From positions 1-38,973 of the forward strand of contig DASTWM010000095.1 in the NCBI GenBank assembly GCA_035765855.1: DNA of 38,973 bases, given 5' to 3'. The translations under genes and the position numbers were made by a program. Shown piece by piece: positions 4,259 to 25,422 of this stretch. Source of the DNA: Roseiflexaceae bacterium (GTDB lineage Bacteria > Chloroflexota > Chloroflexia > Chloroflexales > Roseiflexaceae). The notes beneath the pieces are model-generated. The model was not told the origin of the DNA, made no database searches, and saw only the letters and a list, made by a program, of their open reading frames with translations. Positions within the stretch are counted from its first letter, which is position 1. Every line of letters starts with the position of its first letter.

Positions 4259-4310
4259 CTTGATTGAAGATCAAGCTCACTATTGACAATTTTAAAATTT
4301 AATCTATAAT
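4259..4310 (+). promoter_or_regulatory. Sigma70-type promoter TTGACA(4283-4288)-N16-TATAAT(4305-4310) for the LacI gene, preceded by the palindrome CTTGAT-tgaag-ATCAAG (4259-4275)
   Basis: The -35 and -10 hexamers are exact consensus matches. The spacer contains the 12-bp palindrome AATTTTAAAATT. The transcription start site would lie ~140 nt upstream of the ATG at 4455. Confidence 0.45.
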
Positions 4311-4454
4311 TGAATTAACGATTTAACCCATAATATACTTCTTCTGTTTTTCACAATGTTGTGGTTGCTGTTATCTACTATGTTCTTGCCGCACCAGTAA
4401 CTGGTGTATCTGTGCGTATCTGCGCCTAGATGCAGCAGATGAGGTCTTTGAACA

Positions 4455-5453: not shown

Positions 5454-5551
5454 GTGAGGCCGAGTCTGTGCAACCTTCCCAGTGTATGGGATCAGTCGTA
5501 CAGTGCATATATTCGGTGTAAATTTCAGGCAAAGATGCTAGGAGGAAAACA

Positions 5552-7468: not shown

Positions 7469-7480
7469 ACTCCTGAATTT

Positions 7481-7512
7481 CAGCAGGTGCCATGGCTTCA
7501 TGGCACCTGCTG
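7481..7512 (+). other. Perfect 13-bp-stem hairpin CAGCAGGTGCCAT-ggcttc-ATGGCACCTGCTG, 13 nt after the substrate-binding-protein stop
   Basis: Seen directly in the sequence. No U-tract follows. It looks like an intercistronic stabiliser or partial terminator between the substrate-binding-protein gene and the permease genes. Confidence 0.5.
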
Positions 7513-7616
7513 AGGTATCGTAAGCGTTTGAACGAGGGAAAAGGAGATCGAGAGGTGGGCTGGCACTGTTGCGCTGCATCGGAATAAGCCCCCGGTACAA
7601 GAAAGAAGGGAGACTC

Positions 7617-8621
7617 ATGTCAGTAGGATATTTAGTGCGGCGTGTTTTTCTGCTGCTGCTCGTGGTTTGGACAGCAGCAACGATCAATTTCTTTGTTCCC
7701 AAGCTTAGCCCGCGAAATCCTGTGCTTGAACGGCTGCAGGAAGCATCGCGCGGCGGCGGGCGGCAACAGACCGGCTTGCAGGAAATGATGAAAGCCTACC
7801 AAGCCCAATTCGGGTTGGACAAGCCATTGTGGGAACAATATGTCAACTACATGAGCGGTGTTGTGCGGCTTGATTTTGGCTACTCGATCAACGCATATCC
7901 CAAGAAGGCCATGGATGTGATTGCCGAGGCCTTGCCCTGGACGATTGGCCTCGCAACCGTTGCGACTATCCTGGCCTTTTTTATTGGCACCATCCTTGGC
8001 GCGCTGATTGCGTGGCCGCGCGCGCCGCGTTTTTTCCGCTCGCTCATTCCTCCGCTTATGATGTTTCAGGCCATGCCCTTTTATCTCCTTGGTCTGATTC
8101 TGATCTATATTTTTGCCTTCAAGTTCCGCATTTTGCCACTTGGCGGCGGCTTTTCGCGCGGGGCCGTTCCGCGCTGGAACCTTACGTTCGCGCTTGATCT
8201 GGTGAAGCATGCTGTTTTGCCAGCTTTAGCGATCATTCTTTCATCGCTTGGCGGCTGGGCGCTCGGCATGCGCGGCCTCATGGTATCGATTCAAGGCGAA
8301 GATTTTATCACCTTCGCCGAGGCGAAAGGGCTGAAATCATCGCGCATCTTTACCCGCTATGCCATGCGTAATGCTATGTTGCCGCAAATCACCGCGTTGC
8401 TGCCGAGTTTAGGCTTTATCATCATCGGCACAAGCCTGGTAGAGATTATCTTTGGGTATCCGGGGCTTGGCACCGTCATCAGTCAGGCAATCAACAGTCT
8501 GGACTATTTTGTCATTTATGCAATTACCGTTATCCTGACCATCGTGATTTGTATCGCAACCCTTATCATGGATTTGACCTACCCGCTACTTGATCCGCGT
8601 ATTAAATACGAGCGAGGCTAA
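7617..8621 (+). CDS. ABC transporter permease (DppB/OppB-like)
   Basis: It is a BPD_transp_1 multi-transmembrane protein. The start MSVGYLV is preceded by GAAGGGAG. Confidence 0.9.
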   Translation: MSVGYLVRRVFLLLLVVWTAATINFFVPKLSPRNPVLERLQEASRGGGRQQTGLQEMMKAYQAQFGLDKPLWEQYVNYMSGVVRLDFGYSINAYPKKAMDVIAEALPWTIGLATVATILAFFIGTILGALIAWPRAPRFFRSLIPPLMMFQAMPFYLLGLILIYIFAFKFRILPLGGGFSRGAVPRWNLTFALDLVKHAVLPALAIILSSLGGWALGMRGLMVSIQGEDFITFAEAKGLKSSRIFTRYAMRNAMLPQITALLPSLGFIIIGTSLVEIIFGYPGLGTVISQAINSLDYFVIYAITVILTIVICIATLIMDLTYPLLDPRIKYERG

Positions 8622-8622
8622 T

Positions 8623-9531
8623 ATGGCAACACTTGCTGGAACTGCTGCACCGGCGGCAAGCGCTGCAGGACCAGGCCGCTTAACGCGCTTCTTCCGCTAT
8701 GCGCGCCGAAATCCGGCCTTTGGCATCGGGTTGATTATTCTGATCACACTGGTGCTTTTCTCAACAGTGGGCATGTTGTTCATCGATCTGAGAAAAGCGC
8801 CCTACCCGCTCGGAACGCCACCCAGCAAACCGCCGTCCTGGCAGTATCCATTCGGGACCGATGCCCAGGGACGCAATCTGATCGCGGTGATGATCGTCGG
8901 CACGCAGTTGACGCTGCGGGTCGGGCTCATGGCCGGCGCGATTGGTATCGCCGTTGGAACCATTCTGGGGTTTGTGTCGGCCTACTACGGCGGCTTCCTC
9001 GACGGAGTGGTCAAGTGGATCGTCGACGTCATGCTCACGATTCCCGCGTTCCTCATCCTGGTGGTGATCGCTTCGACGCTGCGCAATTTCCTCACGGTTG
9101 AGAGCATGGCCCTGATTATTGCGGTTCTGGCGTGGGTCGGCCCAACGCGCATGATTCGCGCCCAGGTGCTTACCTTACGCGAACGCCAGTTTGTGCTCAT
9201 GGCACGGCTTTCTGGCATGAATAACATCGAGATCATGTTCAAGGAGTTGCTGCCGAACGTGCTGCCGTATCTGCTGGCCGGATTCGTGCAGTCCGTCACT
9301 GCGGCGATTCTGACCGCGCTTGGCCTTGAGTTGCTGGGACTCGGGTCGCAGCGCGAGCCAACGCTCGGCATGACGATTTACTGGGTTCAGAAGTATTCAG
9401 CCATTTTGCGCGGCCTGTGGTGGTGGTGGACCATTCCGGTTATCATCATTGTGCTGCTGGTTGTCTCTCTGGCGTTAATTTCGTTGGGCTTGGACGAATG
9501 GTCGAACCCCCGCACACGGAGGGCAGCGTGA
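8623..9531 (+). CDS. ABC transporter permease (DppC/OppC-like)
   Basis: It is a multi-transmembrane permease. The ATG at 8623 follows a GAGG Shine-Dalgarno. The six-frame ORF begins earlier, inside the upstream gene. Confidence 0.85.
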   Translation: MATLAGTAAPAASAAGPGRLTRFFRYARRNPAFGIGLIILITLVLFSTVGMLFIDLRKAPYPLGTPPSKPPSWQYPFGTDAQGRNLIAVMIVGTQLTLRVGLMAGAIGIAVGTILGFVSAYYGGFLDGVVKWIVDVMLTIPAFLILVVIASTLRNFLTVESMALIIAVLAWVGPTRMIRAQVLTLRERQFVLMARLSGMNNIEIMFKELLPNVLPYLLAGFVQSVTAAILTALGLELLGLGSQREPTLGMTIYWVQKYSAILRGLWWWWTIPVIIIVLLVVSLALISLGLDEWSNPRTRRAA

Positions 9532-10499
9532 GCGATCAACTATTACAAGTTCGGGATTTGCTGGTTCAGTATCATACTGATCGCGGCGTTGTCAAAGCGG
9601 TGAACGGAGTCAGTTTTGATCTCCAGCCCGGCGAACGGCTCGGCCTTGTTGGGGAGTCCGGCTCCGGCAAATCGACCATGGCGCTGGCGCTGATGCGCAT
9701 GATTAAAGCGCCAGGTCGCGTTGCAGGCGGCCAGATTTTGTTGCACGGACAAGATTTGCTCGCCCTTTCTGAAGAGCAGATGCGCAAAGTTCGCGGCGCT
9801 AAAATCAGCATGGTGCCGCAGGGCGCGATGAACTCGCTCAACCCGGTGGCGCGCATCAAAGATCAGATCATCGACACGATGAAAGATCATGATATGAGCA
9901 TGTCCAAGACTCAGATGGAGGAGCGCGCGGCTCAGGTGCTCGAAATGGTGGACCTGAAGCGCGAGGTTGGCAGGATGTACCCGCATGAGCTGAGCGGCGG
10001 CATGAAGCAGCGCGTCTGCATCGCCATCGCGGTCGCAATGCGGCCCGATGTGATCATTGCCGACGAGCCAACCAGCGCGCTCGACGTGGTCGTGCAGCGC
10101 CAGGTCATGGAAACCTTTGGCAAGCTGCAAGACCTGATGGGCGTGGCAATCATCCTGATCGGCCACGACATGGGCCTCATGGCGCAGTTCGTCGATCGGC
10201 TTGCGGTGATGTACGCCGGCCAGTTTGCCGACCTCAGCCCGATTCGTGAAACGTTCAGCGAACCACTGCATCCATACACACAAATGCTCATCAACAGCCT
10301 GCCAAGCCTGGATGTTAAAGGCGAACTGAAAGGCATTACTGGATTACCGCCTTCATTGCTGAAGCTGCCATCAGGATGTGTGTTTCATCCGCGCTGCCCC
10401 AGCGTGATGGAGCGTTGCACAAAACAGGTGCCGATGTATCAGGAAGTGCGGCCACAACGCTGGGTCGCTTGTCATCTGTACGATGAGGTTAAGCCATGA
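9528..10499 (+). CDS. ABC transporter ATP-binding protein (DppD/OppD-like) with a C-terminal oligopeptide-type extension
   Basis: It has Walker A GESGSGKST, the signature LSGGMKQRV and Walker B IIADEPTSALD. A GTG start at 9528 follows GGAGGG and overlaps the upstream stop. Confidence 0.85.
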   Translation: MSDQLLQVRDLLVQYHTDRGVVKAVNGVSFDLQPGERLGLVGESGSGKSTMALALMRMIKAPGRVAGGQILLHGQDLLALSEEQMRKVRGAKISMVPQGAMNSLNPVARIKDQIIDTMKDHDMSMSKTQMEERAAQVLEMVDLKREVGRMYPHELSGGMKQRVCIAIAVAMRPDVIIADEPTSALDVVVQRQVMETFGKLQDLMGVAIILIGHDMGLMAQFVDRLAVMYAGQFADLSPIRETFSEPLHPYTQMLINSLPSLDVKGELKGITGLPPSLLKLPSGCVFHPRCPSVMERCTKQVPMYQEVRPQRWVACHLYDEVKP

Positions 10500-11386
10500 C
10501 ACCCATTATGGAATTACGCAACGTCACGAAGGTGTACGGCAGCAGCGGGCTCCTGGCGAAAAAGGGAACTGCCGCGCTGAAGAGCATGAATTTGGCACTC
10601 GAAGCTGACGATCCGTCGATCCTTGCGGTGGTCGGCGAGAGCGGCAGCGGTAAGAGCACGCTTGCTTCGCTTATTCTGGGTTTCATTTCGGCAACTGAAG
10701 GCGAGGTGTTGTATAACGGTAAGGATGTGAAGCGGCTTTCCAATGCCGAGCGACAGGTCTACCGGCGCGAAGTGCAAGCTATTTTTCAGGATCCATTTGC
10801 CGTGTACAACCCGTTCTATCGCGTCGATCATGTGCTTAACGTTCCGCTCAGCAAATTCAAACTTGCGCGCACGAAGGCCGAAGCGCAGCGCATGATGGAG
10901 GAGGCGCTCAGCGCGGTCGGCCTGCGGCCCGAGGAAACCCTTGGCCGCTATCCGCACCAGCTCAGCGGCGGGCAGCGGCAGCGCATTGTCGTGGCGCGCG
11001 CGCTGATGCTGAAGCCGAAGCTCATTATTGCTGACGAGCCGGTTTCCATGGTGGATGCATCGCTACGGGCGACGATTCTTGAGAGCCTGCGCACGCTCAA
11101 CAAGGATCTGCGCATCCCTGTTGTCTACATTACCCACGATCTGGCGACCGCATACCATGTGAGCGACCAGATTGTCGTGCTGTTTCGCGGCGAGGTCGTC
11201 GAGTCGGGCGAGACCGAGACTGTTATCAAGAATCCGCAGCACTCCTATACCAAGCTGCTGATCGACTCGATTCCATGGCCGGACCCAGAGCGCCGCTGGG
11301 GACAAACGAAGGAAGAATTCGAGCAGGAGTTGCATTCTGTCGCGCGGCAGGCTACCGCCAGTGGCAGCCGCTGGATGCCAGAGTAA
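10496..11386 (+). CDS. ABC transporter ATP-binding protein (DppF/OppF-like)
   Basis: It has Walker A GESGSGKST, the signature LSGGQRQRI and Walker B IIADEPVSMVD. An ATGA overlap with the upstream gene suggests translational coupling. Confidence 0.9.
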   Translation: MTPIMELRNVTKVYGSSGLLAKKGTAALKSMNLALEADDPSILAVVGESGSGKSTLASLILGFISATEGEVLYNGKDVKRLSNAERQVYRREVQAIFQDPFAVYNPFYRVDHVLNVPLSKFKLARTKAEAQRMMEEALSAVGLRPEETLGRYPHQLSGGQRQRIVVARALMLKPKLIIADEPVSMVDASLRATILESLRTLNKDLRIPVVYITHDLATAYHVSDQIVVLFRGEVVESGETETVIKNPQHSYTKLLIDSIPWPDPERRWGQTKEEFEQELHSVARQATASGSRWMPE

Positions 11387-11506
11387 TCCTGCGAAAACTG
11401 TTTCCTGATGTACAATACAGCCTATGAAGAACTGCTGACATCGTCTTCATGGGCTGTATCATTTTCAGGTCGCCAGCCGCGCCTCGAAAGCGTTGCATTG
11501 CTCACT

Positions 11507-11851
11507 ATGCTGCGTATGCGCCGGATGTTCGCCATTATGCTGCTTACAAGCCTCATGGTGCTGGTTCTCGGCTGTGGCGGCATGGCGGCCGCTCTGCACC
11601 AGGGCTTGCTCATGCCCCTCGCATTCGATGCCCGCGTTGGCCCGCTGCACATCGTGACGCACGCGCCGCGCGCAATTCAATGCCCGCAAAGCACCAATTG
11701 GTCAGCCAGAGAATGCGCGCATTATCAGGCTGATTTCACAGCAGCGCCGCGCAACTACCGCGTGTGGGTGTTTGTCAATCAGCAGCAGCACGGCCAACCT
11801 GCCGCGCGCCTGCTCATGCAGCTACAGTTGCCGCTCCGCGCGTCCTCATAG
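11507..11851 (+). CDS. Hypothetical small lipoprotein (uncertain)
   Basis: It has a signal-peptide-like N-terminus MLRMRRMFAIMLLTSLMVLVLGC with an LGC lipobox. The mature part is Cys/His-rich. GC3 is typical only downstream of ~11500. There is no clear Shine-Dalgarno. Its stop abuts the stop of the convergent ATPase gene. Confidence 0.3.
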   Translation: MLRMRRMFAIMLLTSLMVLVLGCGGMAAALHQGLLMPLAFDARVGPLHIVTHAPRAIQCPQSTNWSARECAHYQADFTAAPRNYRVWVFVNQQQHGQPAARLLMQLQLPLRASS

Positions 11852-12568
11852 CGCTTGTTCCTCGACCATCTCAACGAGTTGGCCGTCCTCCATGTGGTAG
11901 GTAATGTCGGCGAATGCGCGCGTGGAAGGATCATGGGTGGTCATGACCAGCGTCACGCCGGTGGAGCGAACGATGTCGCGCAAGAGGTGCAGAATCGCGC
12001 GGCCAGTGGTGGAGTCGAGCTGGCCGGTCGGCTCGTCTGCGAGCAGCAACTGCGGGCGCGAGACCAGCGCGCGGGCGATGGCAACGCGCTGCTGCTGGCC
12101 GCCGCTCATCTCCGGCGGGCGGTGCGTAGCCCACGCGCCGATGCCCACGAGTTCGGCCACCTCATTCACGCGCGCGGCGCGCTCATGGCGCGGCAGCGAG
12201 CCATTGATGCGCAGCGGCACCTCGATATTTTCCCATGCGGTCAGAATGGGCAGCAGCGCGAACGATTGAAAGATAAAGCCGAGCCGCTCGCGCCGCAGTC
12301 TGGTGAGTTGTTCCTGACTCAGCGCGTTCAATGGCTGCCCAAACAACTCGACATTGCCGCTGGTGGCCTGATCCAGCCCGCCCAGAATATTCAGCAGGGT
12401 GGTTTTGCCAGAACCAGAGCGGCCTTCGAGCGTCACGAACGTGCCGGACTGCACGGCCAGGCTGACACCGCGCAGCGCGTTCACGGGCTTGCCGCCAGCG
12501 TGGTAGGTGCGCGCGAGATTCGTGATGCGCACGGCAGGGGCTTCAGATTGCATGGGTGTGTATGTCAT
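11846..12568 (-). CDS. ABC transporter ATP-binding protein (MacB/LolD/FtsE-type nucleotide-binding domain)
   Basis: It has Walker A GRSGSGKTT, the signature MSGGQQQRVAIARAL, Walker B LLLADEPTGQLD and H-loop LVMTTHD. Its start overlaps the upstream stop as ATGA. Confidence 0.9.
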   Translation of the reverse strand: MTYTPMQSEAPAVRITNLARTYHAGGKPVNALRGVSLAVQSGTFVTLEGRSGSGKTTLLNILGGLDQATSGNVELFGQPLNALSQEQLTRLRRERLGFIFQSFALLPILTAWENIEVPLRINGSLPRHERAARVNEVAELVGIGAWATHRPPEMSGGQQQRVAIARALVSRPQLLLADEPTGQLDSTTGRAILHLLRDIVRSTGVTLVMTTHDPSTRAFADITYHMEDGQLVEMVEEQAL

Positions 12569-13464
12569 GGTACGTGTTCGTCATCGGCGGGCCGCAGCAG
12601 CAGGCCGTCGGGGCGTTCTTCAAAAACCACGCGCCGCGCGAATCCATAGCGCTCGCGCAGCGCCTTCGGCAGTTGCACCCGCCCGGCTGCGTCCATCAGC
12701 ATGCTTTCTTCAAGATGCTCGATGACCACTGGCGCAGCAGAATCTGCTCCGTCGCCGTTCAGGCGGCGCTTGCGGCGGGTTTCGCTGGCGGTGCGGCCAT
12801 CGTGGATCATCACTACCCGGTCGACATGCGTGGTGATGTGCGGATCGTGCGAGACAATCACGACCGTCAAGCCAAATGTCTGGCTTAAGGTGTGGAACAG
12901 GTCGAAGATCGTCGACGCCGTGCCGGTGTCAAGTTCGCCGGTTGGCTCATCGGCCAGCAGCAGCCGAGGCCGGTTGGCGAGCGCAATGGCGATGGCGACG
13001 CGCTGCTGCTCGCCGCCGGAAAGCTCCGCGAGGCGATGCCCGGCGCGATCCGTCAGCCCGACCGCTTCAATCAGCTCGCGCATCCATGCCCGGCGCGCGC
13101 GCCCACCAACTCCTTGCAGCATCATGGGCAGCGCGATCTGCTGTTCAATCGTGAGATAGGGAATGAGGTTGCGGGCCTTTTGCTGCCACACAAAGCCAAC
13201 CACCCGCGAACGATAATGATCGAGCGCGCGGTCGGACATCTGGCGCAAATCATTGCCTGCGACGAGCACGCGCCCGCTCGACGGTCGATCCAGACCGCCC
13301 AGAATATTCAGCAGCGTAGTCTTGCCGGAGCCGCTTGCGCCGACAAGCGCCAGCACTTCCGCTGGCTGCACAGCTAAATCAACGCCTTGCAGCGCAACAA
13401 CCTCGATCTCGTCGAGTTCGTAGATTTTGATGAGATTATCACAGACGATCAATGGGTCTGACAT
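12565..13464 (-). CDS. ABC transporter ATP-binding protein fused to a C-terminal AbrB/SpoVT/MazE-like swapped-hairpin domain
   Basis: It has Walker A GASGSGKTT, the signature LSGGEQQRVAIAIAL, Walker B LLLADEPTGELD and H-loop VVIVSHD. The C-terminal ~45 aa (MDAAGRVQLPKALRERYGFARRVVFEERPDGLLLRP) matches the GRVxIPKxIRExxG..D-G-L-L-RP pattern of SpoVT/AbrB domains. I chose the start at MSDPLIV (ATG 13464). The ORF's N-terminal extension is Arg-rich and unlikely to be real. Confidence 0.85.
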   Translation of the reverse strand: MSDPLIVCDNLIKIYELDEIEVVALQGVDLAVQPAEVLALVGASGSGKTTLLNILGGLDRPSSGRVLVAGNDLRQMSDRALDHYRSRVVGFVWQQKARNLIPYLTIEQQIALPMMLQGVGGRARRAWMRELIEAVGLTDRAGHRLAELSGGEQQRVAIAIALANRPRLLLADEPTGELDTGTASTIFDLFHTLSQTFGLTVVIVSHDPHITTHVDRVVMIHDGRTASETRRKRRLNGDGADSAAPVVIEHLEESMLMDAAGRVQLPKALRERYGFARRVVFEERPDGLLLRPADDEHVP

Positions 13465-13560
13465 GGGAAGGTTCCGTTGCATACAGCGGCGTACCGACGG
13501 GCGACGAGCAAGCCAGCCGCGCCTGCTCCTTCTGCGGTGCGTTGTTCGACACAACCTTTA

Positions 13561-13663
13561 CCATCATACCACAAGTCACAGTTAAACTAACTACGATGCA
13601 GGACGGTTTTTGGCGCGGCACCAGACGCAGGCGACTTGACCACAAGCACATTCGCAAGTATGA
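13561..13663. promoter_or_regulatory. Divergent promoter region. The plus-strand promoter is TTGACC(13635-40)-N17-TATGAT(13658-63). The minus-strand promoter is an extended -10 TGgTATGAT (plus coordinates 13561-13572). A direct repeat ACCACAAG(T)CACA at 13568-13580 and 13638-13649 overlaps both.
   Basis: Seen directly in the sequence. A second extended -10 (TGaTATAAT, 13760-13768) lies closer to the lipoprotein ATG. Confidence 0.4.
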
Positions 13664-13825
13664 TAGTGCCAGTATAAACGTTATAGATTTTTGACTTTTG
13701 AAACCCTCGAGAGCTGTAACCCCTCTGCACAATACCGCATACGAAGCCCATCCATAGCCTGATATAATCATCCATGGCGCGTGATGAACCGTGTGCCTGT
13801 TTGTGCAGCGAAATAGGAGACATGA

Positions 13826-15340
13826 ATGGTACATCGCTACGGCGCGAGTGTCCGAGCAACGCTTGCTCTGTGCGCCTGCATGGTGCTTGTGGCGGGCTGT
13901 GGTTCGATTGCAAGCTCCTCCGCGCAGGAGTTGCCGACATTTCCACCCCTGGAAGTCGAGCCAGCAGCCGCGCATGCTGCCCCGACGCCACGCCCCGGCC
14001 AGCCGCAGCCCACGGTTGCGCCCGAGCCGACCGCTGTACTCGGCGAGCCGAAATCGCTGCGCGAAGACATCCGGATTCGCAAGGTGCTGGAGACTGGCGG
14101 CGGTTTTGTGCGCCTGAAGCACGATCCAAAGAGCGACGAATTGTATTACATGGATGACAAGGTAAATATTTACCGGCTCGATCCAGCGGGCAGTGATGAC
14201 GATAAAGGAACGCCCGTCTTTACGCGCGCTGATGTCGGCGTTGAGAAGCAGTTTACCAGCCAGGGTTTGGCGTTCGGCCCGGATGGCACACTCTATGTTC
14301 TCGGAAATATCAACGACAAGATCACCACCCACGCGATTATTCGCAAAGGCGTGGCAGATGCATCCGGCAAACGAACATGGACGACGCTTGCCGAAACCGC
14401 GCCGTACCAAAAGAGCAACACGCAGTTCGATCACGTCTGCAACGGTATCGTCGTCAGCCCCGACGGGCGCTACCTGTACATGAACAGCGGCTCGCGCACC
14501 GATCATGGCGAAGTGCAGGCCACCAAGGGCGCGTTTCCCGACGCGCGCGAGGTGCCGCTTACATCGGCAATCTTCCGCATTCCGACTGATACGGACAACC
14601 AGGTGCTGCCCAACGACGAAGCACAACTGAAGGAAAAGGGCTATCTGTTTGCCGATGGCACGCGCAATTCCTTCGACCCTGCGTTTGCGCCGAATGGCGA
14701 CCTGTTTGCCGGCGACAATGGGCCGGATGCTGACTTTCCCGATGAGCTGAACTGGCTGCGCGAGGGACATCATTATGGTTTTCCATGGCGCTTCGGCAAT
14801 TACGACAATCCGCAACAATTCCCCGATTACGATCCGTCGAAGGATGGCCGACTCCAGCAAGAGTTCTTCGCCGTCAGCAATCACTTTTACGCCAACGATC
14901 CGACCTTCCCGCCACCACCGCCGGGCGTGACTTTTACCGACCCGGTCGCTAATCTCGGCCCGGACGCCAACATCGTCCGCGATGCCGATGGTAGCGCGCA
15001 CCGGGCGAGCGACCTTGGCGAAGCAGCATACAGTTTTACCCCGCACCGTTCGCCGCTCGGGCTGGTGTTCGATGCAGCCGGGGCCGTCGGCGGCGGGCTG
15101 ACGGGTGACGGCTTTATTCTGAGTTGGGGCGCGGCTGCCGGTCATCTGCCCGATCAAGGGCGCGACCTGATTGACATCAAGCTCACCAAAGTGCAGGACG
15201 CGTATCAGGCCAAGATGACGCAACTCGTCGTCGGATTTGATCATTCCATCGATGCCGTGCTTGTGCAAAACCGGCTGTATGTGCTGGACAACGGCGGCAA
15301 AGGGACGATCTGGGAAGTCACGTTACCGAAACATGGCTAG
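13826..15340 (+). CDS. Secreted lipoprotein with a PQQ-dependent sugar dehydrogenase (GSDH/YliI-family)-like beta-propeller
   Basis: It has a signal peptide with an LVAGC lipobox, then a Pro-rich linker. The propeller has blade motifs GLAFGPDGTLYV and GIVVSPDGRYLY and the family hallmark DGTRNSFDPAFAPNGDLFAGDNGPDADFPDELNWLREGHHYGFPW (compare YliI GHRNPQG..GP..DEINLI..G.NYGWP). An AGGAGA Shine-Dalgarno lies 7 nt before the ATG. Confidence 0.8.
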   Translation: MVHRYGASVRATLALCACMVLVAGCGSIASSSAQELPTFPPLEVEPAAAHAAPTPRPGQPQPTVAPEPTAVLGEPKSLREDIRIRKVLETGGGFVRLKHDPKSDELYYMDDKVNIYRLDPAGSDDDKGTPVFTRADVGVEKQFTSQGLAFGPDGTLYVLGNINDKITTHAIIRKGVADASGKRTWTTLAETAPYQKSNTQFDHVCNGIVVSPDGRYLYMNSGSRTDHGEVQATKGAFPDAREVPLTSAIFRIPTDTDNQVLPNDEAQLKEKGYLFADGTRNSFDPAFAPNGDLFAGDNGPDADFPDELNWLREGHHYGFPWRFGNYDNPQQFPDYDPSKDGRLQQEFFAVSNHFYANDPTFPPPPPGVTFTDPVANLGPDANIVRDADGSAHRASDLGEAAYSFTPHRSPLGLVFDAAGAVGGGLTGDGFILSWGAAAGHLPDQGRDLIDIKLTKVQDAYQAKMTQLVVGFDHSIDAVLVQNRLYVLDNGGKGTIWEVTLPKHG

Positions 15341-18200
15341 CGAACCAACAACTGAAAGCATCACGAATCCTACCGTCACGACATCCGACGCCGAGCACTG
15401 GTCGTTCGGACTGAACTGGCTCAGCAGCATCGTCGGCCTGGTGCAGATCGTTGCATTGCGCATCTGGAGCAACCTGCGGCTCATGCTCGCTATCCTGGCT
15501 GGCATGATCGTCGCTGTCGCGCTCGTGAGCAGCATTCCGGTGTACGCCGAAGCGGTTGGCTACCGCGTTTTACGTGATGAGTACGCGCAGAACACGTTTG
15601 CGAATGTGCTGCGCTTCGATTTTTTGTACCGCTACCTCGGAGCGCAGGGCGGCCTCACGGTCGCGCAGTACAATAAACTGAACGATTATTTCAACCAGCA
15701 GGCACCCGGCACGATCGACCTGCCAGTGCTCATGCGCGGGCGCTACATTTCATCCGACAAGCGCTCGCTCATGCCACCCGGCGGCGATAGCCCGGCGGTC
15801 ACGTCGGTCAACCTGGCCTTCAGCGATGGACTGGCGGACCATATTCAGATCACAGATGGTGGCTGGCCGCGTACCACGTCAAGCGGCCCGATTGAAGTAT
15901 TAATGACGGGAGCGCTCGCCAGGCAACTCAAGGCAGTGGTCGGGCAGGAGTTTTTCGTCGTTGACTCGCAAGATAACCCGAGCGGCAATGGTGTTACCAT
16001 TCGCGTCGCGGGCATCTGGCAGCCGAAAAACCCTGCCGAGCCATTCTGGTTCTACTCGGAGATGAAAGCGGATACCGTTCTCTATGTTCCGCTGGAGAGT
16101 TATACCAGACGGCTGCTGACCCGCGAACCACGAATGATCACCGTCGCGTTGTGGTATCTCTCTGACGATGGCCGCGTTATTCGCTCGGCGGCGGTGCCTG
16201 CGGTGCAGGCGCACATCGACGAGGGCATCCGCGAGTTCGAGGCGCTGCTGCCCGGCGTGCAGTTAGATGTCTCGCCGGGCGGCGTGCTCGCGCGCCATCA
16301 GGAACGCGTGCAAAGCCTCACAACCTCGCTGACGCTGTTTAGCCTGCCGCTGCTTGGCCTGGTGGCCTATTTCGTGATCCTGGTTGCTGGCCTCGTCGTG
16401 CAGCGCCAGAGCAACGAGATCGCCGTGCTGCGCAGCCGTGGCGTGTCGCGGCTGCAAATCCTTGACATTTACCTGCTCGAAGGCGTGCTGCTCGGCCTGC
16501 TGGCGCTTGGCCCCGGCTTATTGCTCGGTCTCGGCGCGGCGCTGCTCATGACATGGGTACAATCCTTCCTGGTGCTCCAGCCGGTCAGCGATCTGCCGAT
16601 TGAATTGACGCCTGCGGCATGGCAGCGCGCCGGACAGGTGCTGCTGCTGCTGATCGTCGCCAGCCTGATTCCGGCGTTCGGCGCGGCCAACTACACGATT
16701 GTTTCGTACAAAAGCGCGCGCGACCGCCTGACACGCGGGCCGCTCTGGCAGCGCATGTGGCTCGATCTCATTCTGCTCGTCGTGGTCGCGTATGGGTTCT
16801 GGCAATTGACGCGCAATGGCACCGTGACGGTGTTCGGCGTCGAGGCAGCGACCGGCGATCCATTTACCAGCCCGCTGCTGCTGCTCGCGCCGACGCTGTA
16901 CATCGTGGTGCTTGGCATGGTCAGCCTGCGCATTTTCCCGATTGTCATCACGGCGCTCACATGGCTCTCGGATCGGCTGCGCGGCATTGTGGTGGTGACG
17001 GCGCTGCGCTATCTTGCCCGCACGTCGCGCGCCTACATCGGGCCGGTGCTGCTGCTCGTACTGACGCTCAGTTTGTCGATCTTCACCGCGTCCATGGCTG
17101 GCACGGTCGATCGCCAACTCTTTGATCAGATCTACTACGCCACTGGCGGCGACATGCCGATTACTGATCGTGGGCAGCCAGCCGACGGTGGGAAATTATC
17201 GTTTGTGCCGCTTGAGAAGTACGCGCAGATTCCGGGCGTCAACGGTCTAACGCAGGTGGTACAGAGTCCCGCCGAGGTGCCGATATCCAACGGCAGCGTT
17301 CAGGCACAGTTCCTCGGCATCGACCGGACGACCTTTGCCAGTGTCGCTCGGTGGCGACCCGACTATGCCGACGCGCCGCTCGATCAATTAATGCAGCGGC
17401 TCGCTTCTGCCCAACAAAACGTACTGATTAGCAGCGCGTTGCGCGACCAGCAGGGGCTACAGATTGGCGACCACATGACGCTGAAGTTGTACGGCGGCAC
17501 GGGCGGTTTCGATCTGCCGGTGGTCGTCGCGGGCGTCGTCAATCTTTTTCCAACCGTCTATCCCGAGGATGGCCCGTTCATTATCGGCAATCTGCCGTAT
17601 GTGTTCAGCAAAGCCGGCGGGCCGTACTCGTACGATGTCTGGCTGAAACTCAGCGACAATGCCGCGCGCACGGATGTGGAAACCGGGCTGCGCAACGCTG
17701 GCATTGATTTTATCGAGCGCGGCTACGCGCCCAAGGACATCGTGGCCGAGCGCGGGCGGCCCGAACGTCAGGGGCTGTTTGGGCTGCTCTCGGTCGGCTT
17801 TGTCGCGTCGGCCTTTCTGACGGTGCTCGGCTTCCTGTTTTACGCGGTGTTGTCGTTCCAGCGGCGCTTCATCGAATTTGGCATGCTGCGCGCGATTGGG
17901 CTATCATCACGGCAACTCGGCGCGCTGCTGGCATGCGAGCAGGCGCTGATCATTGGCATCGGCGCGCTTGCGGGAACGGTGATTGGCGTCAGCGCCAGCT
18001 ACCTGTTCATTCCATTCATGCAGGTGCGGGCGGAAAAGCATGCGCTGACGCCGCCATTTCTGGTCGAGATTGCATGGCTGCGCATTGCGATTATTTATGT
18101 CGTGTTCGGCGTCATGTTGCTGTGCGCCGTTTCGATTACCCTGCTGCTGCTACGCCGGATGAAGCTGTTCCAGGCCGTGAAGCTGGGCGAGACGGTGTAG
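15333..18200 (+). CDS. Large ABC transporter permease with two FtsX/MacB-type domains. It has ~10 transmembrane helices and large extracytoplasmic domains.
   Basis: There are two copies of the FtsX hallmark (EIAVLRSRGVSRLQI and FGMLRAIGLSSRQL), each followed by transmembrane bundles. A ~280-aa extracytoplasmic domain follows transmembrane helix 1. The ATG at 15333 overlaps the upstream TAG (ATGGCTAG), so it is translationally coupled to the lipoprotein. Confidence 0.85.
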   Translation: MASEPTTESITNPTVTTSDAEHWSFGLNWLSSIVGLVQIVALRIWSNLRLMLAILAGMIVAVALVSSIPVYAEAVGYRVLRDEYAQNTFANVLRFDFLYRYLGAQGGLTVAQYNKLNDYFNQQAPGTIDLPVLMRGRYISSDKRSLMPPGGDSPAVTSVNLAFSDGLADHIQITDGGWPRTTSSGPIEVLMTGALARQLKAVVGQEFFVVDSQDNPSGNGVTIRVAGIWQPKNPAEPFWFYSEMKADTVLYVPLESYTRRLLTREPRMITVALWYLSDDGRVIRSAAVPAVQAHIDEGIREFEALLPGVQLDVSPGGVLARHQERVQSLTTSLTLFSLPLLGLVAYFVILVAGLVVQRQSNEIAVLRSRGVSRLQILDIYLLEGVLLGLLALGPGLLLGLGAALLMTWVQSFLVLQPVSDLPIELTPAAWQRAGQVLLLLIVASLIPAFGAANYTIVSYKSARDRLTRGPLWQRMWLDLILLVVVAYGFWQLTRNGTVTVFGVEAATGDPFTSPLLLLAPTLYIVVLGMVSLRIFPIVITALTWLSDRLRGIVVVTALRYLARTSRAYIGPVLLLVLTLSLSIFTASMAGTVDRQLFDQIYYATGGDMPITDRGQPADGGKLSFVPLEKYAQIPGVNGLTQVVQSPAEVPISNGSVQAQFLGIDRTTFASVARWRPDYADAPLDQLMQRLASAQQNVLISSALRDQQGLQIGDHMTLKLYGGTGGFDLPVVVAGVVNLFPTVYPEDGPFIIGNLPYVFSKAGGPYSYDVWLKLSDNAARTDVETGLRNAGIDFIERGYAPKDIVAERGRPERQGLFGLLSVGFVASAFLTVLGFLFYAVLSFQRRFIEFGMLRAIGLSSRQLGALLACEQALIIGIGALAGTVIGVSASYLFIPFMQVRAEKHALTPPFLVEIAWLRIAIIYVVFGVMLLCAVSITLLLLRRMKLFQAVKLGETV

Positions 18201-18265: not shown

Positions 18266-19102
18266 ATGCAGATTGCAATCACCGGCGGCAGCGGGCGCAT
18301 TGGTCGCGCCGTTGCTGCGCTGGCGCGCGCGCAAGGACACCGCGTTGTCAGCATTGACCGCGTGCTTCCACCTGAGGATGCTGTGTCACCTGAGGTAACG
18401 TTTGTTGAATTGGATACGACCAATTACGACGGCTTTGTGCGGGCGTTAGACGGATGTGACGCGCTGATTCACCTGGCCGCTATTCCAGCGCCGGGGTTCC
18501 ATCCCGACCATGTCGTTCATAACAACAATGTGGTTGGCAGCTATAACGCGCTGCGCGCCGCAGCAGAGCAGGGCATCATGCGCGTGTGCCAGGCATCCAG
18601 TATCAACGCTACCGGCGCGGCCTTTAGCCGCTGGCCGCACTACGACTACTTTCCGCTCGACGAGCAGCACCCGACCTACAACGAAGATCCGTACAGCCTC
18701 TCGAAGTGGATTTGCGAGCAGCAGGGCGACTCGTTCGCGCGCCGCTACGAGGGCATGACCATCGCCAGCCTGCGCTTCCACGGTGTCATGCCGGCGCGCC
18801 CGTCAGCGGCATGGTTTGAACAATATCCTGAGGGCAAAGCAATTCTTACCAAACACCTGTGGGGCTACACACTGCTGGAGGCCGCCGCGCGGGCCTGCCT
18901 GGACGGGATCACTGCTGATTTCTCCGGCCACGAAGCGTTTTATATTGTCGCGCCAGATACCATGATGGAGACGCCATCGCGCAATCTGGCTCATGAGTTT
19001 TTCCCTGACGTTCCCATTCGCGGCGACTTGAGCGGTACGCAGGGGTTTTTCAACTGTGAAAAGGCCGAACGGCTGCTCGGCTGGCAGCATAACGCAGCAT
19101 AA
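18266..19102 (+). CDS. NAD-dependent epimerase/dehydratase family (extended SDR) protein
   Basis: It has the N-terminal Rossmann motif ITGGSGRIG and a YxxxK-type catalytic region. An AAAGGAA Shine-Dalgarno lies upstream. Confidence 0.85.
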   Translation: MQIAITGGSGRIGRAVAALARAQGHRVVSIDRVLPPEDAVSPEVTFVELDTTNYDGFVRALDGCDALIHLAAIPAPGFHPDHVVHNNNVVGSYNALRAAAEQGIMRVCQASSINATGAAFSRWPHYDYFPLDEQHPTYNEDPYSLSKWICEQQGDSFARRYEGMTIASLRFHGVMPARPSAAWFEQYPEGKAILTKHLWGYTLLEAAARACLDGITADFSGHEAFYIVAPDTMMETPSRNLAHEFFPDVPIRGDLSGTQGFFNCEKAERLLGWQHNAA

Positions 19103-19159: not shown

Positions 19160-20416
19160 ATGAAAATCACCAAAGTTCGTCCGATTCTGACCGCGCCCGA
19201 CGGTATCGCGCTCGTGATCGTCAAAGTTGAAACCGACCAGCCCGGCCTGTATGGGCTTGGCTGTGCCACGTTTACGCAACGCCCAACGCTGGTCGCCAAG
19301 GCGGTCGAGGAGTACCTTGATCCGCTGTTGCAGGGCCGCGACCCGCGCAACATCGAAGACCTGTGGCACATGATGTACGTCAATTCCTACTGGCGCAACG
19401 GCCCGGTGCTGAACAATGCGATCAGTGGCGTGGACACCGCGCTGTGGGACATCAAGGGCAAGGTCGCCAACATGCCGGTGTACGACCTGCTGGGCGGCAA
19501 GTGCCGCGAGGCGGCCATGGTCTACCGCCATGCCGACGGGCGCGAACCGCAGGAAGTGCTGGAGAACGTTATCAAGTACCAGGAACAGGGCTACCTGGCG
19601 GTGCGCTGCCAGATGGGCGGCTACGGCGGGCGCGTCAAGGACATCACGGCGGCCACGGCGGTGCCGAGCAAGGACGCGCCGCAGGCGACCCATCGCATGC
19701 AGATGATGGATCGGCTCAACAGCAATTTTCCGGGCGCGTACTACAACCCGGATGTCTACGCGCGCTCCATCCCGCCTATGTTCGATTACATTCGCTCCAA
19801 GATCGGCTTTGACCTGTTCCTGCTGCACGACATTCACGAGCGACTCGCGCCGATCGATGCCATCCGCATGGCCAAAGAGCTGGAGCCGTATCGCCTGTTC
19901 TTCCTTGAAGACCCGCTCGCGCCCGATCAGATCGAGTGGTTCCGCCGCCTGCGCGAGCAGTCCGCCACACCAATTGCCATGGGCGAACTGCACAACAACC
20001 CGCTGGAATGGCGACCACTGATTGCCGAGCAGTTGATTGATTTTGTCCGCGCCCACATCTCGCAGCTGGGCGGCCTTTCGCCAGCGCGCAAAATGGCATC
20101 GTTGTGCGAGTCGTTCGGCGTGCGCACCGCCTGGCACGGCCCGGGCGACACGTCGCCGGTCGGTCACGCGGCCAACCTGCACCTCGATCTGGCCTGCCAC
20201 AACTTCGGCATCCAGGAAGTGATCAACTTCAGCGAGGCGATTTACGAGGTCTTTCCCGGCACGCCCGAATTGCACGAAGGCCACCTGTGGGCCAACGACA
20301 AGCCCGGCCTGGGCATTGACATCAACGAGGAGGCCGCCGCGAAATACCCGATTACACTCAAGCCGATTGAGTGGACCCAGAGCCGCTGGCCCGACGGCAC
20401 AGTCTGGACGCCATAA
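19160..20416 (+). CDS. Enolase-superfamily D-mannonate/D-gluconate dehydratase family protein (ManD/RspA-like)
   Basis: The N-terminal capping domain (MKITKVRPILT..LVIVKVETDQPGLYGLGCATF) and barrel motifs are characteristic of the ManD/RspA subgroup. Its ~418-aa length is typical. Confidence 0.9.
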   Translation: MKITKVRPILTAPDGIALVIVKVETDQPGLYGLGCATFTQRPTLVAKAVEEYLDPLLQGRDPRNIEDLWHMMYVNSYWRNGPVLNNAISGVDTALWDIKGKVANMPVYDLLGGKCREAAMVYRHADGREPQEVLENVIKYQEQGYLAVRCQMGGYGGRVKDITAATAVPSKDAPQATHRMQMMDRLNSNFPGAYYNPDVYARSIPPMFDYIRSKIGFDLFLLHDIHERLAPIDAIRMAKELEPYRLFFLEDPLAPDQIEWFRRLREQSATPIAMGELHNNPLEWRPLIAEQLIDFVRAHISQLGGLSPARKMASLCESFGVRTAWHGPGDTSPVGHAANLHLDLACHNFGIQEVINFSEAIYEVFPGTPELHEGHLWANDKPGLGIDINEEAAAKYPITLKPIEWTQSRWPDGTVWTP

Positions 20417-20423
20417 CGCGCCG

Positions 20424-20798
20424 CTAGTCGCAGCATTGCTGAATAAACGCCAGCAGCCGATCAAGATCCAGAGGCTTTGGGAAATATTCCTCGGCATCGA
20501 TGGTCGGCTGCTGCACGATGCTGCGGTCGGCGGAAATGACGGCCACGGGAACGTTGGCGATGGCAGGATCGTGCTGCTGCTCCTGCCGAAACTCCCAGCC
20601 GGTCATCACCGGCATGTTCAGATCAAGCAACACGACGCGCGGTTGATCTGCCGCCGACCGCAGCAGATCAATCGCCTCGCGCCCGTTGGTTGCACAGACT
20701 GCATTGAAGCCCTCTTCTTCAAGAAACATGGTTAGCATATCACGAATAGCGTAATCATCATCGACCACCAGAACATTGTAAGATTGTGATGTGCTCAT
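20424..20798 (-). CDS. Single-domain (REC-only, CheY-like) response regulator
   Basis: It has the pattern VLVVDDD..LLDLNMP..T..FPKP. There is no output domain. An AAAGAGG Shine-Dalgarno lies within the kinase 3' end. I chose the start at MSTSQSY. Confidence 0.85.
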   Translation of the reverse strand: MSTSQSYNVLVVDDDYAIRDMLTMFLEEEGFNAVCATNGREAIDLLRSAADQPRVVLLDLNMPVMTGWEFRQEQQHDPAIANVPVAVISADRSIVQQPTIDAEEYFPKPLDLDRLLAFIQQCCD

Positions 20799-20808
20799 GC
20801 GCCCCAAA

Positions 20809-22662
20809 TCAGCCTCTTTCTGTTGTGTCGTGCTGCGCCGAAGAGAAAGGCAGCCTCGCCGCAGGCAGGTCTGTCTCGCTGGGCAGGTACACTCTGAACG
20901 TGCTGCCCTGCTCGGGCACGCTTTCAACTTGCACATGGCCGCCATGGTGGGCCACAATTTCATGCACTAAATACAGGCCAATGCCAAGCCCGCTAATCCG
21001 CTTTGGATCGACGTTTGAGGCCCGGTAGAATTGAGCAAAGAGCCGCGACTGCTCATTGAGCGGAATGCCGATGCCCTGATCGGTGATCGTCAGACGGATG
21101 TGTTCAGCCAATTGCTCCAGGCGAACGTCAACTATTCCTCCCATGGGGCTATATTTTACCGCATTGGTGAGCAGATTTTGCAGCACCTGCTCCATGCGCA
21201 TCTCGTCGCCTTTGAAGACAATCCCCGGCGCGATGGTAGCGTGAATGGTATGTCGATGCAATGTCAGCCCAAATTCATCCACCACACGCTGCACAAAGGC
21301 ACTGAAGTCGAACAGTTGCACGCTGAGCGTGAAATGGCCTAGCTGCAACCGCGAAACATCCAGCAACGTTTCAATTAAGGTGTTCAGGCGCTGGCCCTGC
21401 TCCTGAATAATGACAAGACTCCGCTGATCGCGTTCGGTGAGCACGCCATTGCGCATGGCGCGGCGCTCCAGAATCTGCGCATTGCCCAGCAGTGCGGTGA
21501 GCGGCGTGCGCAGCTCATGCGCGGCAATCGACAGAAAGACCTCGCGCATGTGAATGGCCTGCTGGGCGTCGCGGTAGAGTAGGTCATTCTCAATCGCGAG
21601 CGCGGCACGGTCGGCAAGATCCGTGGCAAACACAACATCGTCCTGCGTGTAGCTCACGCCATTGCGGTCGCGCGCAACAATCATGGTGCCGAGGAAACGT
21701 GCGCTACTCTGGATCGGCACAATCATCATGCTCACAACACCAAATTGTTCAAAGTACGGCCGGTATGCAGATTGACGTATGTTGCGCAGCAGTTCGTCTG
21801 GTATTTCAGCCAGTAGCAGCGATTGTCCAGCCTGCGCAACGCGGCCTTGCAAACCCTCGCCAAAGTGCAACCTCATGTCACTTATGACGGTGTGGAGCAG
21901 CTTCAGCGCCTCAGGATTGCGATGAAAACTGGCTATCGGCTTTAATGTCTGTTCATCGTCTGAGATCAGCGAGATCATGCAGACATCGCCCAGGAGCGTC
22001 GCAATTTGCTGTGCCACCGTGTCCAGCAAATCAGGAGCATGGAGGCTTTTCGCGGTGAACAGCCGGGACGCCTCGACCAGCATATGCAGGCGCGCTTCGG
22101 CCCGTTTGCGCTCGGAAATGTCTTCGATCACCGAGATAAAATAGTCGGGCGTTCCATCGGCGGCGCGCACCAGCGAGACGGTTAAGTTAATCCATATCAG
22201 CGAGCCGTTTTTGTGAATATAGCGCTTCTCCAGGCTATACTGATCAAGCTCATTGTTGAGCACCCGCCGCGCATACGCAAGATCTATTTCGAGGTCATCC
22301 GGGTAGGTAAGATCCTGGAACGTGCGGGTTGATAGTTCATCGCGAGAATAGCCGACAATATCACACAACTTTTGGTTGACCCGCAGCCATGATCCATCGG
22401 GAGCGACAAGCGAGAGTCCGACCGCCGCCTGGTTGAAGGTTGCCGCGAATCGCGCTTCGCTGGCCTGGAGCGCCGCCGCAATCTGTTGCCGCTCGTCCGA
22501 TGCGCCTTGCTCAACGCTGGTTGATTCCTGCTGATGCTGCACATGCGCGCGGTACGACTCAAAAAAGTTCAGCAGGCCGGGCTCTTGCTCTATCAGTGAG
22601 CGAAGATTATGTATACCAAAAGTGGCCTGTATTTCGGCAATAAGCTCATCGCTCGATTGCAT
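20809..22662 (-). CDS. Cytoplasmic sensor histidine kinase (PAS - GAF - HisKA - HATPase_c)
   Basis: It has no transmembrane segments. The PAS region is VGLSLVAPDGSWLRVNQKLCDIVGYSRDEL. The H-box is IAAHELRTPLTALLGNAQIL. The N/G boxes include LTNAVKYSPMGGIVDV and DQGIGIP. The start could be 22662 or 22725. Confidence 0.85.
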   Translation of the reverse strand: MQSSDELIAEIQATFGIHNLRSLIEQEPGLLNFFESYRAHVQHQQESTSVEQGASDERQQIAAALQASEARFAATFNQAAVGLSLVAPDGSWLRVNQKLCDIVGYSRDELSTRTFQDLTYPDDLEIDLAYARRVLNNELDQYSLEKRYIHKNGSLIWINLTVSLVRAADGTPDYFISVIEDISERKRAEARLHMLVEASRLFTAKSLHAPDLLDTVAQQIATLLGDVCMISLISDDEQTLKPIASFHRNPEALKLLHTVISDMRLHFGEGLQGRVAQAGQSLLLAEIPDELLRNIRQSAYRPYFEQFGVVSMMIVPIQSSARFLGTMIVARDRNGVSYTQDDVVFATDLADRAALAIENDLLYRDAQQAIHMREVFLSIAAHELRTPLTALLGNAQILERRAMRNGVLTERDQRSLVIIQEQGQRLNTLIETLLDVSRLQLGHFTLSVQLFDFSAFVQRVVDEFGLTLHRHTIHATIAPGIVFKGDEMRMEQVLQNLLTNAVKYSPMGGIVDVRLEQLAEHIRLTITDQGIGIPLNEQSRLFAQFYRASNVDPKRISGLGIGLYLVHEIVAHHGGHVQVESVPEQGSTFRVYLPSETDLPAARLPFSSAQHDTTERG

Positions 22663-22746
22663 CGCCCACACCTTTGTCCAACGTTTCTCTTTGAGGAGTT
22701 TGCTGTTTGCAGCTAAAGCATGCACATGAACACCTATAATGATATT

Positions 22747-23812: not shown

Positions 23813-23885
23813 GGTGTTCCTCCTTGACATGCGTTTCCAGAAAGCACATGTTACACAGATCGATCCACCGCAGCACGCAACTGCA

Positions 23886-25103: not shown

Positions 25104-25422
25104 CCAAAAATTGCGCCTGGCATGCCGCGCAATGATAATCTCAGCTTGTTGTACACTCACACACTGCTCCGACGTATGAAATAACGAGAATATCTCAGGA
25201 GCAGCATGGTACCACGTCTTGCGAAAGACAGATTCGGGCGTAACGCGCCACTCGCTTGCGTGGAAACATCTGCGCACGACAGCTGATGAACATTTCCTAC
25301 GTTATCTGGTATTCCGTAGCCGACGCCCACGAGGGACGTCGCTACATGTACGCACCCGCATCATTCCTCATTGTTCACCAAACCATGGGTACATGCTCAC
25401 GCATAACGCTTTTATGTCAATG

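Follow-up and report, generated by a model that had tools for sequence, protein, structure and literature searches.

What serves as the extracytoplasmic partner of a MacB/FtsX-type ABC transporter when the gene of its adaptor is missing? The question is raised by a four-gene module in contig DASTWM010000095.1 of a Roseiflexaceae bacterium (Chloroflexota), of which we analysed a stretch of 38,973 nucleotides (nt). This whole stretch of ~39 kb is called the window below, and coordinates are window positions unless another locus is named. Type VII ABC systems owe their biological function to the extracytoplasmic partner. In the window the adaptor's slot, directly 5' of the permease gene, is occupied by the gene of a lipoprotein of the GSDH family, i.e. 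with the fold of sugar dehydrogenases that use pyrroloquinoline quinone (PQQ). Our analysis suggests that permease and lipoprotein could be direct functional and physical partners in the manner of the YbbAP-TesA complex, and we put the probability of this reading at roughly 0.45.

The module consists of four intact open reading frames (ORFs), which are not chance ORFs because they are long and have highly significant homologs. Two ABC ATPase genes, named NBD-B and NBD-A after their nucleotide-binding domains (NBDs), lie on the minus strand. NBD-B (12565-13464) is a MacB/LolD-class ATPase of 299 amino acids (aa) counted from its ATG, and NBD-A (11846-12568), the second gene of the pair, is a MacB/LolD/DevA-class ATPase of 240 aa; the stop codon of the former overlaps the start codon of the latter as ATGA (minus-strand letters CCATGACA). 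Facing them on the plus strand are the lipoprotein gene (13826-15340, 504 aa) and the gene of a YbbP-like fused permease (15333-18200, 955 aa), whose first 8 nt, ATG included, are shared with the end of the lipoprotein ORF, the ATG preceding the stop codon of the lipoprotein (ATGGCTAG). The first-pass annotation of this DNA had described this layout of an ATGA-coupled ATPase pair facing a lipoprotein and a permease fused at the stop/start level, and both the ORFs and the letters agree with it, the fusion being the 8-nt overlap. It had also called the extracytoplasmic partner stoichiometrically co-expressed; the translational coupling is visible, but stoichiometry goes beyond that coupling. The divergent intergenic region of 361 bp (13465-13825), of which we read the letters, contains a promoter-like sigma-70-type match, TTGACC-17-TATGAT at 13636-13664 (+), which is a consensus match only and says nothing on function.

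Folds of the transporter and the lipoprotein

The permease has the architecture of E. coli YbbP. Pfam finds FtsX in two stretches of it (63.9 bits against a cut-off of 25.5), and its predicted structure (mean predicted local distance difference test score, pLDDT, 80; predicted template-modelling score, pTM, 0.74) has 10 transmembrane (TM) helices. The model places mixed alpha/beta extracytoplasmic domains at residues ~88-315, between TM1 and TM2, and ~605-808, between TM7 and TM8, and short coupling helices after TM2 and TM8. The claim of two FtsX domains is thus confirmed by the Pfam stretches and the model, and the protein is not a single FtsX domain joined to an unrelated half. The top Foldseek match is YbbP over the full length (9ge6_A and 9ge7_A, E 7e-20), followed by BceB, LolE/LolC and MacB, with HrtB also among the fold matches. 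The extracytoplasmic domains match the isolated periplasmic domains of LolE (5udf), MacB (5lj8), LolC (6f49) and YknZ (5f9q), and Pfam MacB_PCD is on record for many homologs of the permease. The second-best structural match, BceB, shares with our permease the fused 10-TM double-FtsX chain and the use of two ATPase subunits. BceB differs in having no first extracytoplasmic domain and in its partner, the membrane histidine kinase BceS; no such kinase gene adjoins the module.

Both ATPases match Pfam ABC_tran (E 2.4e-33 for NBD-A and 1.5e-32 for NBD-B), and canonical Walker A, Q-loop, signature, Walker B-Glu and H-loop motifs can be read in both translations, the signature of NBD-A being MSGGQ. 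The best NCBIfam matches are DevA, LolD and MacB for NBD-A and LolD, YbbA and MacB for NBD-B; over the class (DevA, LolD, MacB, YbbA, FtsE) the E-values range from 1e-52 to 1e-62, all with scores under the equivalog cut-offs. The two are ~43-44% identical to each other, and are distinct genes which are both kept across the permease family. Judged by its FtsX modules, extracytoplasmic domains and intact ATPases, the module is a complete MacB/FtsX-superfamily (type VII) ABC system, as had been claimed for it.

NBD-B carries a C-terminal tail of ~70 residues (12565-12790 (-), …GRVQLPKALRERYGFARRVVFEERPDGLLLRP…) that is common to the NBD-B proteins of ~65 operons of the family. The tail has a weak Pfam match to the MazE/AbrB/MraZ swapped-hairpin fold (E 0.0026, below the cut-off), and might give one of the two ATPase subunits a domain for regulation or dimerisation.

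The partner candidate is a lipid-anchored propeller. Read from the sequence, a lipobox M-V-L-V-A-G-C25-G-S follows a hydrophobic h-region, its cysteine being kept in the alignment consensus, and after Cys25 comes a disordered, Pro-rich, low-confidence tether of ~50 residues that extends to residue ~75. From there on the AlphaFold2 model (built on an alignment of 29 sequences; pLDDT 84, pTM 0.84) is an all-beta propeller. Pfam GSDH (PF07995) scores 39.4 bits against a cut-off of 25, with profile positions 64-223 of 332 matched. Against the Protein Data Bank (PDB), Foldseek finds the soluble glucose dehydrogenase sGDH (1c9u and 8re0, E 3e-16), fungal AA12 (6h7t) and E. coli YliI/Asd (2g8s), together with Streptomyces Adh, HHIP and 3das; the E-values for sGDH, AA12 and YliI range from 3e-16 to 1e-12. 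By model and profile, the lipoprotein is a six-bladed propeller of the GSDH/YliI type, in agreement with the first-pass annotation, and it retains the catalytic histidine.

The residues bear this out in part. D202-H203 is invariant across the 29 homologs, and H203 and YliI His147 both map to position 114 of the Pfam GSDH profile, the position of the catalytic general-base histidine, which in sGDH is His144. R280-N281, N298-G-P and Y317-G-F-P are also invariant in the family, and in a sequence alignment the first two correspond to sGDH R228-N229 and Q246-G-P. The central motifs R-N, (Q/N)-G-P, D-E-x-N and Y-G-(W/F)-P, as candidate ligands of PQQ and Ca2+, align with those of sGDH and do not vary in the lipoprotein family. 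The lipoprotein differs from sGDH, YliI and AA12 in its low identity to them (~15-17%) and in its lipid anchor and tether. The C-terminal R-x-R of YliI and sGDH binds the carboxylates of PQQ. At the sequence level that motif (R341/R343 in YliI) has no recognisable counterpart in the F-D-H-S-I-D-A-V of the lipoprotein, whose family has an invariant motif of its own, N-x-G-S-R-x-D-H-G-E (220-229). An hhalign comparison of the lipoprotein family with E. coli YliI gave an alignment limited to the central blade, so a full-length sequence alignment to YliI was not possible. A replacement of the catalytic histidine by Phe143, suggested by a weak phmmer alignment, was rejected as a blade-register error on the basis of the Pfam profile coordinates and the spacing to the R-N motif.

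A lipoprotein in the place of the adaptor

We surveyed the permease family in 80 metagenome contigs with homologs of 37-60% identity and in loci fetched by exact protein look-up, here numbered with the prefix L; the full sets hold 308 permease loci and at least 461 species-representative genomes that encode the lipoprotein. The canonical Chloroflexota operon is co-directional and runs from a lipoprotein adaptor through the permease and NBD-B, tail included, to NBD-A. The adaptor is a lipoprotein of ~450-530 aa with a coiled coil, which scores 115 bits on NCBIfam RND_mfp (cut-off 94.9) and has the Pfam families YknX, RND-MFP and CzcB on record. The window ATPases have their counterparts there: NBD-A shares 50-68% identity with the gene that closes these operons, and NBD-B, again with its tail, 50-69% with the gene 3' of the permease in ~65 loci.

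The adaptor gene is directly upstream (within 4 kb) of 73 of the 89 full-length permeases. Another 11 have a GSDH lipoprotein instead, and not one of these 11 has an adaptor. The remaining five have neither, and for three of them there is no upstream sequence; among permeases with enough flank, only those of L100 and L115 are without both adaptor and lipoprotein. A tblastn search with eight family adaptors (E<1e-3) gave no adaptor homolog, neither in the 39 kb of the window nor in the lipoprotein-linked loci, and no scanned ORF of the window has a membrane fusion protein domain. What the first-pass annotation had regarded as atypical, a fused permease together with two different ATPases, is the norm of this family because the canonical operon accompanies 73 of the 89 permeases, and the format also matches E. 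coli YbbP. The unusual feature of the window is the absent adaptor with a GSDH lipoprotein in its slot.

The canonical relatives (e.g. L081, L164, L166, L167 and L173), with an RND_mfp/YknX-like lipoprotein adaptor, a permease and MacB-class ATPases, resemble the MacAB, YknXYZ and Spr0693-0695 systems. The window differs from the MacAB/YknXYZ type in having a single fused 10-TM permease chain and two different ATPases, and in being without the adaptor, which is a defining component there. In L100 (253-4982), the permease homolog, which has neither adaptor nor ATPase, overlaps and directly follows genes of GHL6/alpha-L-fucosidase-like glycoside hydrolases, with an SBP_bac_1 gene and another GHL6 gene close by. 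This hints that adaptor-less members might generally be recruited to carbohydrate loci.

The pairing of permease and lipoprotein recurs in ~8 distinct linked pairs, in four arrangements. The lipoprotein gene precedes the permease gene in the window and L001 (8-nt overlap), in L161 and L170 (4-nt gap) and in L163 (13-nt gap). The order is reversed in L003, L101 (4-nt overlap) and L172; the two genes are convergent in L043; and in L099 the permease gene is followed by one other gene and then by the lipoprotein gene on the opposite strand. Start/stop overlaps are therefore present in both same-strand orders, in the window and L001 for the one and in L101 for the other. In L170 a window-like four-gene module, with divergent NBD-A and NBD-B and then lipoprotein and permease, is found in an unrelated flank with no Opp genes within 8 kb, so the module moves as a unit; upstream of it (L170 1-6045) are two consecutive proteins of ~1060-1080 aa without a Pfam domain. 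L001 and L170 preserve the window arrangement, with identities of 66-89%.

The linked permeases fall into two clades. Clade I (window, L001, L163, L161/L170 and L043) and clade II (L003, L101 and L099) are each recovered in 200/200 neighbour-joining bootstraps, and the two together in 0/200. Clade II joins the adaptor-bearing L102 in 200/200, and the sister group of clade I in that tree consists of adaptor-bearing systems (50-55% identity). The linked lipoproteins interleave with unlinked ones and are monophyletic in 0/100 bootstraps. A single origin of the pairing was considered and is ruled out by the bootstrapped trees of both proteins, which point to its having arisen more than once, in two separately supported permease clades. 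In clade II the pair is at the end of an importer operon of the order SBP5-OppB-OppC-OppD-OppF-permease-lipoprotein (L172 4073-14395; L101 4210-14421; L003 1188-11437).

The first extracytoplasmic domain of the clade I permeases has been remodelled. We compared the columns that are at least 85% conserved among adaptor-linked permeases, and found that clade I has replaced 13 of 45 such positions in this domain, with only 1/33, 3/53 and 1/64 replaced in its transmembrane regions (TM8-10 being the last). Nine out of 10 adaptor-linked control clades replaced 0-3 of the ~45 positions in the first domain. Examples in clade I are P93-P94 (95% and 100% conserved) to L-R, G200 to K and P243 to E, and the new residues are common to the window, L001, L163 and L170. 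These changes fit an altered partner surface. Five family-conserved columns changed in both linked clades (e.g. D233N and Y207F) were considered as convergent substitutions; these shared changes are not evidence of convergence because D233N is also found in the adaptor-bearing L102 and in two of the 10 adaptor-bearing sisters shown.

Partners or neighbours

The reading of permease and lipoprotein as partners has a structural precedent. FtsEX works with the partners PcsB, CwlO and RipC, among others. The described type VII partners include EnvC, LolA, MacA, BceS and, since 2025, the esterase TesA (PMC12646458). The YbbP permease binds one periplasmic enzyme, TesA, between its two periplasmic domains; TesA is a GDSL hydrolase (esterase) whose gene is divergent to the ABC genes (PMC12646458; PDB entries 9GE6-9GE8). 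YbbP has 10 TM helices, with domains between TM1-2 and TM7-8, coupling helices after TM2 and TM8 and a TM5-6 linker (PMC12646458). Our permease, for which YbbP is the best structural match, has the same single-chain topology with two extracytoplasmic domains, its partner candidate is likewise an extracytoplasmic enzyme, and here too the enzyme and ATPase genes are divergent.

There are also differences. The sequence identity is only 15-16%; two different ATPase genes stand against the YbbA homodimer; the candidate enzyme is a lipid-anchored GSDH-type propeller instead of a soluble GDSL esterase/lysophospholipase, no GDSL gene being present in the module; and its gene is translationally coupled to the permease gene and not to another gene. 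The window lineage, unlike YbbAP-TesA, demonstrably descends from adaptor-dependent systems, and the enzyme-permease complex, demonstrated for YbbAP-TesA, is in our case a proposed one. The statement of the first-pass annotation that a GSDH-like propeller is not among the described partners holds in so far as the library searched gave no paper that names both FtsX and a PQQ-dependent sugar dehydrogenase, and nothing relevant on MacB systems of Chloroflexi. The pairing is not categorically new, because YbbAP-TesA had already, in 2025, provided a type VII transporter with an enzyme partner.

We infer the permease-lipoprotein complex, the direction of flow and the substrate along the following lines. 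The ancestor would have had the Chloroflexota operon of a lipoprotein membrane fusion protein adaptor, permease, NBD-B and NBD-A. In the lineage of the window the adaptor gene would have been lost and the ATPase pair shifted to the divergent position, and a GSDH-type, aldose dehydrogenase-like lipoprotein would have been recruited from a neighbouring sugar-oxidation locus into the adaptor slot, where its gene became translationally coupled to the permease. A heterodimer of the two MacB-class ATPases, with their intact catalytic motifs, would power the permease, ATP binding and hydrolysis shifting both extracytoplasmic domains in a YbbAP-TesA-like manner, and the tethered propeller enzyme would dock on these moving domains. 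The transporter might then extract a membrane-proximal substrate or acceptor, or present it to the enzyme, or might switch the access of the enzyme. The enzymatic step could be part of an extracellular oxidation of sugars or oligosaccharides that feeds the adjacent Opp-type importer and cytoplasmic aldonate enzymes.

We speculate further, tentatively and at somewhat less than even odds, that type VII transporters may swap their adaptor for an extracytoplasmic redox enzyme. On at least two independent occasions in Chloroflexia, a PQQ-type dehydrogenase lipoprotein would have taken up the role of mechanotransmission partner to a YbbP-like permease, and it would make up a second, unrelated enzyme-partnered class in which ATP hydrolysis is coupled to extracellular carbohydrate oxidation, one of the clades doing so within an Opp-type importer operon. 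If a dehydrogenase propeller did take the adaptor slot twice, partner exchange would be an evolutionary route to new functions, and ATP would tie the cytoplasm to sugar oxidation outside the cell, a link not described before. The adaptor-bearing sister systems of 55% identity offer natural controls, and YbbAP-TesA a structural template.

The main alternative hypothesis is that the two genes are co-located and the proteins physically independent, i.e. a stand-alone aldose dehydrogenase next to a separate adaptor-less exporter or extractor in a carbohydrate island. We regard this as a serious possibility, if a somewhat doubtful one. The lipoprotein would act in a pathway of dehydrogenase, lactonase and aldonate dehydratase, and its adjacency to the permease would come from operon hitch-hiking and co-regulation. 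The lipoprotein family is large, with more than 2,000 relatives, and is encoded in the at least 461 species-representative genomes mentioned above, mostly of Chloroflexota, with some Nostoc and others. We counted neighbours in the best 80 of these genomes (46-86% identity). An epimerase/dehydratase homolog (53-59% identity) immediately follows the lipoprotein in 23 of 77 genomes, an MR/MLE enzyme of the enolase superfamily is nearby in 26 of 80, and an SBP5 homolog is within 10 kb in 21 of 80, against three of 80 (L001, L003 and L043) with a permease homolog within 5 kb. From the permease side, two of the 80 metagenome contigs have the linkage. The gene-neighbourhood survey proposed by the first-pass annotation thus gave a divided answer: co-occurrence is not general, but the adjacency recurs in two permease clades and four arrangements.

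The surroundings of permease-free relatives are of the same kind. In L169 (224-2897) the lipoprotein homolog (70% identity) is immediately preceded by a lactonase gene (PF10282), and L171 has an epimerase and a divergent Opp operon near its lipoprotein relative. The lactonase neighbour speaks for the lipoproteins of this family being genuine dehydrogenases that turn aldoses into lactones. The normal setting of the family is a locus of extracytoplasmic aldose oxidation and aldonate catabolism, because its neighbours are epimerase, MR/MLE, lactonase and SBP5 genes. The window shares this context, with its LacI-type regulator, Opp-type importer, epimerase and MR/MLE genes, and orthologs of its importer (60-90% identity) adjoin the lipoprotein and/or the permease in L001, L003, L043, L099, L101, L163 and L172. 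The lipoprotein also looks like a working enzyme on its own, because the catalytic histidine and the R-N motif are kept, and in most genomes it evidently acts without the transporter. The window as a whole forms a carbohydrate island, its arabinan/arabinose cluster extending over 22.8-38.9 kb, and in L100 an adaptor-less permease stands beside glycoside-hydrolase-like genes without the lipoprotein.

Several observations weigh against a direct partnership. The permease is not nearby in 77 of the 80 lipoprotein genomes, nor beside close relatives of the window protein (L169 and L171, 68-70% identity), and the linked lipoproteins have no extra docking domain. The pairings are found in Chloroflexia sugar loci that hold an Opp-type operon (L170, as said, has none within 8 kb), so the linkage could be to the sugar locus and not to the lipoprotein. 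Within 10 kb of the clade II permeases there is no MacB-class ATPase gene, though these permeases keep the coupling-helix motifs, and most of their own 8/45 replacements in the first extracytoplasmic domain are common to the adaptor-bearing L102. The changes in the first domain could reflect relaxation after the loss of the adaptor rather than adaptation to a new partner, and the trees behind the two origins are bootstrapped neighbour-joining trees only. Physical independence, for its part, leaves three things unexplained: the coincidence of adaptor loss and lipoprotein adjacency in two clades, the translational coupling in both gene orders, and the movement of the four-gene module as a unit outside the Opp context. 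Even as mere co-location, our data would define a large Chloroflexota family of pumps with adaptor, fused permease and heterodimeric ATPase, and the usual sugar-acid context of a widespread family of GSDH-like lipoproteins.

The clade II operons raise the thought that the permease assists the Opp-type oligosaccharide importer instead, handling or positioning its lipid-anchored binding protein or pre-processing the substrate, with the lipoprotein a bystander in the operon. In L172 the permease gene is 3 nt past OppF and no MacB-type ATPase is nearby, and in L043 an orphan SBP5 gene is followed by the permease 15 nt later. L170, with its ATPase pair, lipoprotein and permease away from any Opp gene, is at odds with such a role, and everywhere but in L043 it is the lipoprotein, not SBP5, that is nearest to or overlaps the permease. 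FtsX-type permeases are not known as partners of Opp-type systems, and a literature search gave no hit either; we consider this explanation improbable.

About as improbable, or slightly more so, is the idea that the lipoprotein is cargo, the transporter working in the Chloroflexia envelope as LolCDE or LolDF do, by extracting or repositioning the acylated propeller or further lipoproteins. The closest PDB sequence matches of the first FtsX module (residues 335-455) are indeed LolF, LolC and LolE, and the canonical adaptor and the propeller are both lipoproteins. These matches are weak (E 0.002-0.07), the LolC/E family TIGR02212 of NCBIfam scores 30 bits against a cut-off of 362, the overall fold is nearest to YbbP and BceB, most lipoprotein homologs occur without this permease, and there is no LolA-like gene in the window. 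A decaying remnant of a broken adaptor-permease-ATPase operon, without current function, would suit the rearranged genes and the lost adaptor and is very improbable, given four intact ORFs with canonical ATPase motifs, coupling-helix and FtsX motifs that are invariant in linked and unlinked permeases alike, the near-complete conservation of TM8-10 and the arrangement kept in L001 and L170.

Neighbouring genes

The genes on both sides of the module belong to the carbohydrate island. Upstream, at 4455-11386 (+), Pfam identifies a LacI-type regulator and an Opp/Dpp-type ABC importer with SBP5, two permeases and two ATPases. Between the Opp ATPases and NBD-A is an ORF of 147 aa (11408-11851 (+)) without a Pfam match, which among the loci examined has a counterpart only in L001 (77% identity). 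No convincing common palindrome for a LacI-type operator shared by the Opp promoter and the divergent region was seen on reading 4100-4480, 5430-5580 and 13380-13900. Rfam and tRNA scans of the window gave no matches. A 609-aa antisense ORF over the lipoprotein gene (13439-15268 (-)), "conserved" in 43 loci by ORF clustering and without independent support, was read as a shadow ORF and not as a gene, the gene beneath it being GC-rich.

Downstream of the permease, Pfam identifies an NAD-dependent epimerase/dehydratase (18266-19102 (+)) and the MR/MLE enzyme (19160-20416 (+)). The latter is only 28-30% identical to the MR/MLE enzyme that usually follows lipoprotein and epimerase elsewhere. It shares 80% identity with a second L033 copy and 70% with the copy in L001, where there is no epimerase between the permease and the MR/MLE gene. 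Just past the sugar genes, at 20424-22725 (-), are a PAS-GAF histidine kinase (638 aa) and a response-regulator receiver protein (179 aa). The minus strand from 22844 to 38760 is an arabinan/arabinose utilisation cluster, which encodes an aldo/keto reductase, an MFS transporter, an aldose 1-epimerase, an L-arabinose isomerase, a class II aldolase (AraD-like), an FGGY kinase, a xylose-isomerase-like TIM barrel protein, and two GH43 and three GH51 alpha-L-arabinofuranosidases.

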